Shown piece by piece: positions 60,181 through 64,000 of a DNA stretch of 64,000 nucleotides; within the stretch, counting starts at the first letter, position 1, and each line of letters opens with the position of its first letter. The stretch covers positions 26,040,001 through 26,104,000 of the forward strand of contig OZ320316.1 of assembly GCA_976226885.1 (NCBI GenBank), read 5' to 3'. Source of the DNA: Iphione sp. A-MEVVRFRX5. Lineage: Eukaryota. A program made the position numbers and the translations under genes. Below the pieces are notes generated by a model. It searched no databases and was not told where the DNA came from. It saw only the letters and a list, made by a program, of their open reading frames with translations.

Positions 60181-60377
60181 CTTTAGGATCGAGTATCCTC
60201 GGAACTCCAAGGTATCTCTCTGCTATCGAGAAAGCATTTTCCAAATTGGCCGCATTTGATTTCGTCTCCACCCCATCCACAGTTACCAGATGTGGAATAA
60301 TCTTCTGAAGGATAGCATGAAACGTGGAGCCATCCCGCCAACTGACACCGAAGTCTTTGAAGTCGAGTCCAAAAAGT
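60181..60377 (-). CDS. SYNE1: Second calponin-homology domain exon
   Basis: Phase 2/1. KDFGVSWRDGSTFHAIL...NLENAFSIAERYLGVPRILDP is typical nesprin/dystrophin CH2. Confidence 0.95.
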
Positions 60378-60855
60378 CTGCGAGAGTAGAAAGTTATTGT
60401 TTTAGAGGTTAAATGCTCTGCCAGAATACTGATGTATACCAGTCTACAAGGCTAAGCAAGGATTTCAGCATAGTACGTTAAGCAATTCATTGTACTGAGT
60501 GCATTGTCTTCCTATTTCAAGAGTATAACAATTTGAACTAAATAGAATGAGGCCAGCCATCATAAATATCTGGTTTACACGATTTAACAAAATTAAACTG
60601 TTTCTCTTGTTGATATTCTATCAAAGCAGTGAATAGCCAAGGTATGTTAACTCTTACATCTGTCAGGCGTCGGGTATATGTGAATTCCTTCTACTTGCTT
60701 AAATTTAGATTGCGGTAACTTCCCGCTTGATATCGAAGCACGATGAAGTCCCTCCTTCAAATATTTCTTCAGTTTACACATAGCAACCTGGTCAATATTT
60801 CATCTTATATGGCTTTGTGTACCACATGTAGAGGTCAGTTCTGTCAAATATGTGG

Positions 60856-61847
60856 TGTAACACAGTTTGGTAATTCACTATGTTATTTAAAGTGTAAAGT
60901 GTATAGATATATATGTGCTGTGTATAAGCCTCTATGAGCAGTATGTGTGGGGACGCCCTTCGTCCTATCGGTCGGCCTCACAGTGGTGGGGCGCATCGCA
61001 GTCACCGTGGGTTCTTTGTGGGGTGCTAGGCCACACCGGCGGTCAATGCTGAAGGTCCCACCTTCTCTACTTACACTTACATAATAATGGGGGGTTTCCC
61101 CAATAACTTCACACAACAAGTTAGTGCATTTCAGGCGAGCCTCAGTCCTTGGTCTTTCTGTCTTGTCTCTGGTTCAGCAGCCACTCGCGTTGGTACGTCT
61201 GGGAGACCCTCTCCCCGGAGTGTCTGTCCAGTGTCAGTCTGCTCTCTTTTTATTGCGATTTTGCTCATTACATAAAGATCACACCACCACTTATTATTCA
61301 TCATCCCATCCTCATGCCATATTGTCATTGGTTCACAAACATCGGATGACCATGAGCTGATACACCAAGCTCCGCCCTCATACCTCATTGCTGTCGTTTC
61401 ACAATCATTGGATGACCATGGGCTGACACATCACATTTTGTACCAGGATACAATTTCGTCGTGTCATGCTGAACTAATCGATGCTCCCCTCGTTATGTTA
61501 TCAATACTGGGCCTAAACACCCAATGAACCCCCTCTTTATGCTGGTCAAACCCTCGTATCCTGTTTCTGATATGTAGCTCTGCCCCTCCAACGATTGTTC
61601 ACTGATTGCCCTTGATTATGACGGATTGGTCTATAATTATCTAAGCCACTGGTCGAACCCTCGTATCCTGTTTCTAATGTGTAGCTCTGCTCCTCCAATG
61701 ATTGTTCACTGATTATGATTGCCCTTGATTATGACGGATCAGTCTATAATTATCTAAGCCTGCCTATGTGGGTATGATCGGCTACCTTAAACTCTATTCA
61801 TACATTTCTTACCATAAAACTCAATATTCTAGTCCCCATACTTTACA
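60856..61847 (-). mobile_element. 3' LTR (992 bp) of an env-bearing LTR retroelement
   Basis: TGTAA...TTACA termini. Immediately preceded on the minus strand by a G-rich tract. AATAAA at 61249-61254. Internal ~107-bp duplication. Confidence 0.85.
61542..61760. repeat. Two-copy ~107-112 bp tandem duplication in the putative U3
   Basis: CTGGTC(A/G)AACCCTCGTATCCTGTTTCT...TATAATTATCTAAGCC twice. Confidence 0.95.
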
Positions 61848-61864
61848 TACCCCCCCCACTTAAG
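61848..61864 (-). promoter_or_regulatory. Polypurine tract (plus-strand primer)
   Basis: AAGTGGGGGGGGTA abutting the LTR-initial TG. Confidence 0.8.
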
Positions 61865-61895
61865 ATTTTGGAATCGGTATTCCAATATCTACAAC

Positions 61896-62753
61896 CTATT
61901 CTCGAGGTGGCGGCGGAATTGTTGCTCCCTGAGGTATGCCCTCGGCTCCGCGGCGTTCAGACCGTATAGCTTCTCTTCTGAGCGTTTCTCGGGTTAGTAT
62001 GTGGTGGACGCTTAGGCTGACACGAGGAGTCATAGTGCCATCATCCTCAAACATGGCGTCGCATTTAGGACATCCATCCCAAGCATCCACCACGCTCCAG
62101 AAACATCGCCCATGTATTATTGCACCACAGCATGGCATGCGGCTTGCCTGCCCAACATGCCACCCGGAGTTTTGCACATACACTATTTCCTTTCTACAGA
62201 TACAGCACACTGTGGTCTTATGCCTGTTTTTGTAGAGCCTACTTCGTTCAACACTCCGCAGCACCGATCGAATCTTGCTTTTCGAGAATGCCCTATGGGC
62301 TTGATGATTTTTGATCTTTTGGATAAGGTTCTCCACCGAGTACCCCGCGTGTGTTGCTAGTAGACTAAGGGTAAGGGAGCCGCGAGGACTCTCCGTACCA
62401 TATAGCTCGAGGACTTCTCCCAGGAAGTCATGGGCCTGCGTTGGTTGGTGGGTTATGCCATACTCCAATAAGTGTTCGAACAATTTATCGCATGCAAAAT
62501 AGTTAAGGAACTCTACGTATTTGCTAGCTTGGGAGTCCCACATGCGAGCCCATATTCTCGCCGTCACCTCTTGATCGCTAGTATCTGATCCCAATATCTC
62601 TAGGACCTTGGTGTACTCTCCTTCGTCTAATATTGGGGGCAACCCACAGATACTCGTTTCCTTGATGTTATCATAATGCAGCAAGGCTTCGAAGTACTTA
62701 CTTCGTTGCGCTAACTGCTGGACATCAGTCTCACCCAATTTTACTTCCCCCAT
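61896..62753 (-). CDS. Intronless BTB/POZ-like + RING-finger protein (285 aa), accessory gene inside the LTR element
   Basis: QLAQRSKYFEALL...IKET resembles the BTB LAARS.YF..LF...KES motif. C-terminal C-x2-C...PCC-x4-H-x2-C-x10-CPKC. Lies between env and the PPT. Confidence 0.75.
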   Translation of the reverse strand: MGEVKLGETDVQQLAQRSKYFEALLHYDNIKETSICGLPPILDEGEYTKVLEILGSDTSDQEVTARIWARMWDSQASKYVEFLNYFACDKLFEHLLEYGITHQPTQAHDFLGEVLELYGTESPRGSLTLSLLATHAGYSVENLIQKIKNHQAHRAFSKSKIRSVLRSVERSRLYKNRHKTTVCCICRKEIVYVQNSGWHVGQASRMPCCGAIIHGRCFWSVVDAWDGCPKCDAMFEDDGTMTPRVSLSVHHILTRETLRREAIRSERRGAEGIPQGATIPPPPRE

Positions 62754-63110
62754 GATATATGGTGCTTAACTAAATTGGTTACACACAGGTTAAACTAAAA
62801 AAAAAGGAACGAGTAAATACCGTTATGAATACACTTGCTGCAGTGTGCTAACAACAATAGGAGGACAACCACTATTTGTATATAACACGTCACAGACTTA
62901 ACCCAAACAATCAATAGACAGTGAGATCAACGACCTTCAATCCTTAGTAATAATACACTAGGCTTGTGCGGTTTTGAACTGAATAGGCGCTATCCTATTC
63001 TTCACGGAAATGAACCTGTAACCTCTCAATAGTGCATCCAGACACAAATGTACTACAGGTAACTGAATAGGCGCTATCCTATTCTTCGCGGGGATGTAAA
63101 CTAGTTACAC

Positions 63111-64000
63111 CTACCAAACATGCGTGTGGGACGTGTCCTCGTCCCCATCTTCTGACATCAAATACTCACTGGGGATAACACCTACTGTTGACACACTTCC
63201 GCTCTTAGGTGGTAGCGGGATCGGCAAGCTACCTTTACCTTTGGATTCGGACAGCAGGGAGACTTGCGTGGATCGGACGGAATCTTCTCGTGAGACTGTG
63301 CTACACCCAGTTTTAGGGGTAGGAGGCAAGGGTCTCTTTACTCCTGAAGCGGCCAAATCCCGGAGTTCCATTGTAGACCTTTGCCTGCCTACTACCCGTC
63401 CAACTGGCTTAGTCCATTGACTTGTTAACCATCGTTTCTTCTTACATACACAACATAACACAATCGCGGTCAGAACACCAAGGATGGAAAAACTTGAGCC
63501 CACGGAAGAGCCTATTGTTAACTTTTTCTTTTCAAATGTTGGTGGTTTTACCCATAATGCCTGCGGGTCCCCAGCCTTTAATGTGAGCGGTGCATGCTCC
63601 ACTAGCCTTTTTACCTTTTTGAAGTCCTTCAACTGTTCAATTTTGAAGCCAAAATCAATGGTTTCCGCAGGTTTCGTTTCCTCAACGTTATCTAATGCAA
63701 TCTGTCGAATATACTCCCCAGCAACCCGCCATGAATCTGCTTCCGCTAGGCACCCAGGCCCTAGCTGAAGGATTCTTACTCTTCCGATCTTCTCACGTTT
63801 TTCCTGTTGACCCAAGCAATGTATAGAAAACTCTGAACCATTTCTTCCAGATAGTAAGTATGTGTTCCGTCTTAATTTATAGGCCACATTGGCCCGAGGG
63901 TCCGAAAATAGCCTAATTGTACAGGCTTTTAATTTCTCCTGTTGTCCAGTAATAATACCCGTCACACATTGCTCATGTTGGTGGTGGACCGCTGGTGGGC
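63111..64000 (-). CDS. Envelope/fusion glycoprotein C-terminal part (5' end beyond window) of a Gypsy/ERV-like element
   Basis: Frame open to the window edge. Cys spacing C...C.I...V.Y.L..N.Y...C...L.L.PGC.A resembles invertebrate env/F-type proteins. Single TM SFSILGVLTAIVLCCVC followed by KKKR and a cytoplasmic tail. Confidence 0.82.
   Translation of the reverse strand, partial: PPAVHHQHEQCVTGIITGQQEKLKACTIRLFSDPRANVAYKLRRNTYLLSGRNGSEFSIHCLGQQEKREKIGRVRILQLGPGCLAEADSWRVAGEYIRQIALDNVEETKPAETIDFGFKIEQLKDFKKVKRLVEHAPLTLKAGDPQALWVKPPTFEKKKLTIGSSVGSSFSILGVLTAIVLCCVCKKKRWLTSQWTKPVGRVVGRQRSTMELRDLAASGVKRPLPPTPKTGCSTVSREDSVRSTQVSLLSESKGKGSLPIPLPPKSGSVSTVGVIPSEYLMSEDGDEDTSHTHVW

Follow-up and report, generated by a model that had tools for sequence, protein, structure and literature searches.

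Complex vertebrate retroviruses and large DNA viruses characteristically use accessory genes to hijack cullins. Env-carrying Ty3/gypsy elements of non-insect animals have been described as 'ancient errantiviruses' (PMC13524379), and the planarian giant gypsy element Burro/GYPSM1 is reported to contain an AIR1-like RING zinc finger together with MATH, BIR and ubiquitin-like domains, for which interference with host ubiquitination was proposed (PMC6431247). A phi-x-E motif, phi being a hydrophobic residue, and a 3-box have been identified as Cullin-3 contacts (PMC6484134). These and the other papers cited by PMC number were available to us in part, and what is said of them holds for those parts. 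The locus described here lies in the 1.18-Gb genome of Iphione sp. A-MEVVRFRX5 (contig OZ320316.1), where the window, meaning the whole stretch of 64,000 nucleotides that was analyzed (G000:C10:26040001-26104000), ends inside a Ty3/gypsy element of 9,603 bp, the rest of which was read from adjoining DNA. Behind its env the element carries a separate open reading frame (ORF), ORF4, for which a BTB fold and a RING-type zinc finger are predicted.

ORF4 as a maintained gene of a Ty3/gypsy element family

The element consists, in order, of a long terminal repeat (LTR), tRNA-Ser primer site, gag, pol, F-type env, the 285-aa ORF4, a polypurine tract (PPT) and the second LTR, and the four frames (gag, pol, env, ORF4) are uninterrupted. 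The following parts lie in the window:

61896..62753, minus strand: ORF4, 285 aa, intact and intronless; predicted BTB, 3-box helices, basic helix, C4HC3 finger and tail
63111..64000, minus strand: 3' part of the F-type env, with furin site RPKR, transmembrane anchor (~63435-63515) and cytoplasmic tail
61850..61861, minus strand: G-rich PPT; other subfamilies have the same tract ahead of their 3' LTR
60946..61847, minus strand: 3' LTR, 902 bp, TGTAAAG...CCCCACA
60942..60945, minus strand: target-site duplication (TSD) CATA, 4 bp; the same four bases precede the 5' LTR

A first-pass annotation of the window had called an open env-like frame with a transmembrane anchor, a 357-bp spacer between the env stop (63111) and ORF4, an intact intronless 285-aa ORF at 62753-61896 and a PPT, and had placed the ORF inside the element. 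All of these calls were confirmed; the env-like frame runs without interruption from the end of the window as far as its stop codon, and extension to the right, a check that the annotation had proposed, recovered gag, pol and a 5' LTR (G000:C10:26109647-26110548) identical to the 3' LTR. The LTR itself had been drawn as 992 bp (TGTAA...TTACA), with the start correct (TGTAAAG at 61847) and the end misplaced; the repeat ends with CCCCACA at 60946, and 60856-60945 is the target duplication plus host flank. The duplication had been expected as CCAC(A) at 60851-60855 and is CATA at 60942-60945; 4-bp duplications are also present in other element copies. Given the identical 902-bp LTRs, the TSD and the four open frames, the element was recently inserted.

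ORF4 is a maintained gene of this element family under purifying selection, since it travels with env across diverged subfamilies and shows a low ratio of non-synonymous to synonymous substitution rates (dN/dS). A search of the genome with the ORF4 protein gave 75 matches, and flanks were taken for 30 loci from the better matches. At 27 of the 30 loci env was directly upstream of ORF4, and three were without env. The 27 env-linked loci group into subfamilies with 60%–64% identity to the window ORF4, and they agree in the order of their genes, in primer site and PPT and in having TSDs of 4 bp; in several loci of the family the LTR pairs are 99%–100% identical. A single ORF4-less case was seen, a fragment with env and the spacer hairpin described below, no systematic search for ORF4-lacking members having been made. 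The selection test covered 10 pairs, with dS finite in eight and saturated in two; the eight gave dN/dS of 0.107–0.184, and over all 10 pairs the upper bound of the corresponding ratio of proportions (pN/pS) was 0.46. Values for env were close to those of ORF4 (0.09–0.11) and that for pol was below them (0.05). Constraint on ORF4 was seen in all four quarters of the gene, trees of ORF4, env and pol gave the same subfamily groups, and three different protein queries found no cellular parent of ORF4 in this genome. The co-occurrence with env and the purifying selection that the first-pass annotation had put forward as checks both came out in its favor.

Two further arrangements were observed among the family's loci. 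Three ORF4 copies showing increasing decay lie within 10 kb (G000:C2:124.80-124.81 Mb), and one copy of the ORF4 family contains within its pol a second gypsy element with env, unrelated to the first (L017-L018, G000:C2:123.83 Mb). The nested element has a weak dUTPase match between protease and reverse transcriptase.

Predicted fold and homologues of ORF4

The ORF4 protein is well predicted to be laid out as a minimal BTB, 3-box helices, a basic helix, a RING-type finger and a conserved basic, proline-rich tail, a call that comes from the agreement of several lines, each moderate. Its two domain regions are:

62313..62753, minus strand: predicted minimal BTB core (aa 1-~105) and 3-box/BACK-like helices (aa ~105-147), from model, fold searches and HHalign
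62061..62207, minus strand: RING-type zinc finger C4HC3, ligands C183, C186, C208, C209, H214, C217, C228 and C231

With 16 close sequences the AlphaFold2 model of ORF4 reached a mean predicted local distance difference test (pLDDT) score of 63.5, and with a 34-sequence alignment it reached a pLDDT of 93.4 and a predicted template modeling score of 0.80. In a wide fold search (48,161 chains), which used residues 1–167 only, the top 28 rows were all BTB/SKP1/ElonginC-fold entries, the best with Z 7.0 and a root-mean-square deviation of 3.1 over 88 aligned residues. Foldseek placed the SPOP BTB-BACK first (E 0.15), with A55, KBTBD2 and KLHL11 also present; viral fold matches were weak and mostly to BTB or RING proteins. 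HHalign of ORF4 against 20 host BTB-BACK proteins gave a probability of 87.7% (E 3.4e-6) over 114 columns through the 3-box, and a cullin alignment used as control gave 0.14%. The BTB-like and RING-like calls of the first-pass annotation were thus upheld by model, fold searches and profiles alike, although Pfam gave no significant match.

The RING fold rests on the profile match and Foldseek. Within the family alignment the zinc-ligand Cys and His positions are invariant or nearly so, and 33 of 34 sequences have the full eight-ligand C4HC3 motif with RING-like spacing. The family profile matched RING-H2 ligases, HRD1 best (E 1e-6), then PIRH2 and gp78, and Foldseek, which placed the HRD1 RING at the top beside the SPOP BTB-BACK, gave it a probability of 0.97. 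A hydrophobic residue stands before the second Cys and Pro is frequent after the seventh ligand. Canonical RING E3 ligases have a linchpin Arg after the last Cys and a Trp in the helix of the E2-binding face. At the linchpin position the ORF4 family has R in 1/33 and K in 2/33 sequences (D in the window copy), the Trp is at its canonical helix position in 1/33, and the third and fourth ligands are cysteines in direct succession, a departure from canonical spacing. Absence of the linchpin Arg and helix Trp would weaken E2 recruitment.

A profile search of 1.84 billion representatives (E up to 0.001) found 37 homologous proteins outside this genome, mostly of 250–350 aa. Thirty of these and four in-genome members made up the 34-sequence family alignment, seven shorter ones being omitted. 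The family is without a Pfam entry or a name; Pfam on the single ORF4 protein gave nothing significant (zf-RING_2 E 0.73; no BTB), and among 30 homologue clusters looked up one member was named, as 'hypothetical protein'. In four clusters several variants or fragments were found on long contigs, as would be expected of multi-copy mobile genes. A word-indexed search gave no match with the single protein and three proteins with the family alignment, and JGI metagenome contigs yielded no loci for ORF4 relatives. Leads from the ESM Atlas were all below 0.9, at 0.88 for a fungal RING cluster and at 0.76 for one in which 36% of the members have BTB. As a separate observation, dozens of single-exon BTB-domain genes are clustered in this genome at G000:C17:6.66-7.67 Mb, many with frames of ~600–700 aa.

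How ORF4 may act

From its modeled fold, ORF4 may be a Cullin-3 adaptor mimic that redirects host ubiquitination to proteins restricting the element, and we put the probability of this reading at about 0.45. Docking on Cullin-3 is the most economical proposal because the N-terminal dimerization helix is missing, the 3-box is kept and a hydrophobic-x-E loop is present. The model begins where long-form BTBs reach approximately residue 36 and has no A55-type N-terminal dimerizing helix, which fits a cullin adaptor better than an oligomer. A 3-box following the BTB is typical of cullin adaptors. The candidate phi-x-E motif is I30-K31-E32, with hydrophobic-x-E at 30–32 in 15 of 16 in-genome members, and the host encodes a Cullin-3 that is ~90% identical to the human protein over the first repeat. 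Among named Cullin-3 matches, an annelid and a lancelet protein come out nearly level (92% and 93%). The lack of the linchpin Arg and helix Trp also makes an adaptor mimic likelier than a stand-alone ligase.

In the proposed mechanism, a spliced subgenomic RNA joining a leader donor to an acceptor in the spacer would give ORF4, which would dock on Cullin-3 by means of its BTB, its 3-box and the phi-x-E loop. Its basic tail and atypical RING would then bind the substrate, rather than an E2, so that Cullin-3-bound ORF4 could mark host restricting proteins for destruction. A variant of the same mechanism would have ORF4 sequester Cullin-3 without a substrate. The spacer contains the following features:

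62838..62868, minus strand: candidate splice acceptor, conserved, 84 nt 5' of the ORF4 ATG
62795..62812, minus strand: second acceptor-like poly-T/AG, 41 nt 5' of the ATG, subfamily A only
63061..63096, minus strand: hairpin motif copy 1, conserved
62977..63012, minus strand: hairpin motif copy 2, conserved, 7-bp stem and 6-nt loop

The leader donor CAA/GTAAGT was found in 11/11 copies. The acceptor block was present in 28/28, with YAG in 25/28 and no ATG between acceptor and ORF4 start in 19/28. The poly-T acceptor was considered as a family-wide signal and rejected, being present in 6 of 23 copies, all of subfamily A.

Several findings weigh against Cullin-3 docking. By the search tool's own note a top Z of 7.0 counts as middling, Foldseek gave no match at E 0.001, and the model has an extra helix (aa 60–73) within the BTB core. 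SKP1 and ElonginC score equal to Cul3-type BTBs in the fold search, which leaves room for a different cullin or for none at all. The phi-x-E motif is not conserved by column in distant homologues, where position 32 is E in 7/34 and D in 6/34; a loose match of the loop was found in 22/34, a figure without a chance control, and HHalign sets the ORF4 motif one residue off that of the host proteins. An adaptor has no need of a RING in the same chain, an upstream ATG is left by the acceptor in nine of 28 copies, and the 37 outside homologues are known as proteins alone.

Of the other explanations the one that survives best, though it is unlikely, makes ORF4 a non-proteolytic regulator of element expression, acting in Rev/CERV-like RNA export or Tas/IE-0-like transactivation, whose basic helices and zinc finger would bind the spacer hairpin while the BTB served as a protein-interaction scaffold. 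The hairpin, a 24-nt motif in one or two copies 3' of the env stop, is exactly conserved in four subfamilies, even between subfamilies with saturated synonymous sites, and is nearly confined to ORF4 spacers (of 43 places in the genome that match the 24-mer exactly, 42 are no farther than 600 bp from the start of an ORF4). A conserved basic helix (S157-R166) and R268 would suit RNA binding or transactivation, baculovirus IE-0/EXON0 RING proteins are among the weak viral fold matches (E 0.04–0.08), and a precedent is CERV, a gypsy element's regulator that is spliced and contains cysteine (PMC10309623). Against these points, the hairpin had no family match in Rfam, and folding of the whole spacer was not unusual (z -1.05). 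A circuit between the LTR and an internal promoter was also looked for and rejected, as spacer and LTR share no motif (subfamily A has no common 9-mer, and in subfamily B the sharing does not exceed that of shuffles). The 3-box after the BTB points to cullin adaptors instead, and an orphan ORF4 has stayed intact after loss of hairpin and LTR.

This orphan exists as three near-identical copies without LTR, env or hairpin (L025, L046 and L028, at G000:C22:32998373-32999224, C22:48003176-48004027 and C2:18302413-18303264), which belong to a block at least 70 kb long, duplicated at 99.5%–99.9% identity, and so count as one event. It is 74% identical to the window ORF4 and fully open, with all eight ligands, and SKE replaces the hydrophobic-x-E. 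The integrase remnant beside it has stops and 37% DNA divergence; over the same stretch two live subfamilies diverge by 20%. On the orphan branch 41 synonymous and 40 non-synonymous changes were counted, and in simulations neutral frames as long as this one remained open in 3% of cases at 10% divergence and in 0.6% at 15%. An open ORF4 beside a decayed integrase, with so low a simulated survival, suggests selection after element death, and host co-option is possible. The LTR-less copies were also considered as non-autonomous LTR elements, which we rejected because no LTR pair was found and all lie in the one long duplicated block. The block further contains a frame of 551 aa that has a NADAR domain (E 6.9e-17; L057:5338-6990) and is followed by LINE-like frames.

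Next in standing, and again improbable, is a stand-alone RING E3 ligase that would recruit an E2 itself, with the BTB binding substrate or partners. The matches to HRD1, PIRH2 and gp78, the eight ligands, the hydrophobic residue before the second Cys and the frequent Pro speak for it, and the near absence of linchpin Arg and helix Trp, with ligands 3 and 4 adjacent, speaks against it. The first-pass annotation had proposed a dedicated ubiquitin-ligase gene; the predicted BTB and RING folds agree with this, the missing Arg and Trp do not, and the ligase step itself is putative.

Although ORF4 is intronless and flanked by element sequence, and ORF capture downstream of env is known (PMC6431247), a captured host retrocopy carried neutrally is very improbable and is refuted by the selection test (dN/dS 0.11–0.18 over all four gene quarters); the agreeing trees, and three protein queries that found no cellular parent in this genome, also speak against it. 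A 5' LTR and pol and a selected ORF were found and BTB and RING folds were predicted, whereas the first-pass annotation had named their absence as what would undo its proposal.

It is doubtful, at a single level of probability for the two parts together, that ORF4 founds a widespread and so far undescribed retroelement family of BTB-3box-RING counter-defense proteins that target a germline silencing or restriction factor for degradation and were once co-opted by the host, and that this family is the invertebrate counterpart of Vif/Vpx-type cullin hijackers. The role against piRNA or antiviral silencing that the annotation had suggested finds nothing in the analysis pointing to it. If the Cullin-3 reading is true, cullin hijacking would extend to invertebrate retroelements, by way of a BTB-RING gene under selection in a young gypsy family that carries env, and the ORF4 substrate, once found, would name host factors that restrict them. 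ORF4 is confidently modeled and small enough for direct biochemistry.

Element anatomy and comparison with known systems

The gag frame has 324 aa from its ATG and matched Pfam Retrotrans_gag (E 6e-10) and also Ty3_capsid. The 1151-codon pol frame has the Ty3/gypsy order of protease (20–109), reverse transcriptase (RVT_1, 222–381), RNase H (445–573) and integrase (680–847), with an RNase H-integrase bridge of ~85 aa by Pfam coordinates. Counted from its ATG, which lies outside the window, the env is 646 aa long; it has N-terminal and C-terminal hydrophobic segments, as a class I fusion env with signal peptide and transmembrane anchor would, and a weak match to Baculo_F (E 8.3e-5; 21.8 bits, just below the 24.1 cut-off). 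The primer site complements tRNA-Ser(GCT); it had 11 genomic matches, and two of three checked were ARAGORN tRNA-Ser(gct) genes. The element is a Ty3/gypsy errantivirus, and the match of gag to Ty3_capsid and Retrotrans_gag and of env to the F family points to the Metaviridae rather than the Retroviridae, so that the 'complex invertebrate retrovirus' of the first-pass annotation probably does not hold.

The env ATG overlaps the end of pol (L011:4988-5051), and no obvious splice acceptor was seen in the preceding 110 nt in five of five copies. A slippery heptamer GGGAAAC lies just 5' of the gag stop in three subfamilies (L011:8416-8430; equivalents in L040 and L033), suggesting a candidate site for -1 frameshifting into pol. 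The U3 of the LTR (window 61310-61760) has three internal direct-repeat pairs of 45–66 nt each. One host feature lies close by:

60182..60376, minus strand: host exon with a calponin-homology domain, spectrin/plectin-family gene; same strand as the element and 570 bp downstream of it

In the literature searched, which did not take in Repbase entries, subscription journals or the supplements of bioRxiv, no paper was found on a BTB-RING gene standing by itself after env, and the available part of an annelid LTR survey showed neither RING nor BTB (PMC8220671). The 'ancient errantiviruses' resemble the element in gag-pol-env order, F-type env, multiple copies, LTRs and tRNA primer site, and the short RNase H-integrase bridge fits their 'mini domain' by length only (PMC13524379). 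A fourth gene after env sets the present element apart from them; RING, BTB, ubiquitin and accessory have no occurrence in the main text of that paper, and neither do ORF4, RING and BTB in seven supplements, and its Ser-GCU primer rows are from insects and one ctenophore.

Burro/GYPSM1 shares env homology and ubiquitin-related domains with the element (PMC6431247). Most of its domains are part of a polyprotein of 4,873 aa in an element 30 kb long, with no BTB mentioned in the part available (PMC6431247), whereas ORF4 is a compact separate gene in 9.6 kb. CERV of the C. elegans element Cer1 is likewise an accessory gene of an invertebrate gypsy element with a spliced message, but its domains are helical, M and G and not BTB-RING (PMC10309623). 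The ORF3s of rotifer LTR elements are also accessory genes from spliced messages, encoding a GDSL esterase or a DEDDy exonuclease, not BTB-RING (PMC5408684). With these three cases, the statement of the first-pass annotation that invertebrate gypsy elements normally have only gag-pol-env was too strong.

Among viruses, rotavirus NSP1 assembles a CUL3 ligase that degrades host defense factors, but it has no BTB, borrows Elongin C and belongs to an unrelated virus (PMC13769053). Vaccinia A55 and the poxviral BTB-BACK-Kelch proteins are like ORF4 in joining a viral BTB to a 3-box/BACK, and A55 binds Cullin-3 (PMC6484134). The fold match of ORF4 to A55 had Z 5.9 over 125 residues. A55 has a dimerizing N-terminal helix and a Kelch propeller (PMC6484134), both lacking in ORF4, which differs further in its RING-type finger, its retroelement location and its putative Cullin-3 binding.

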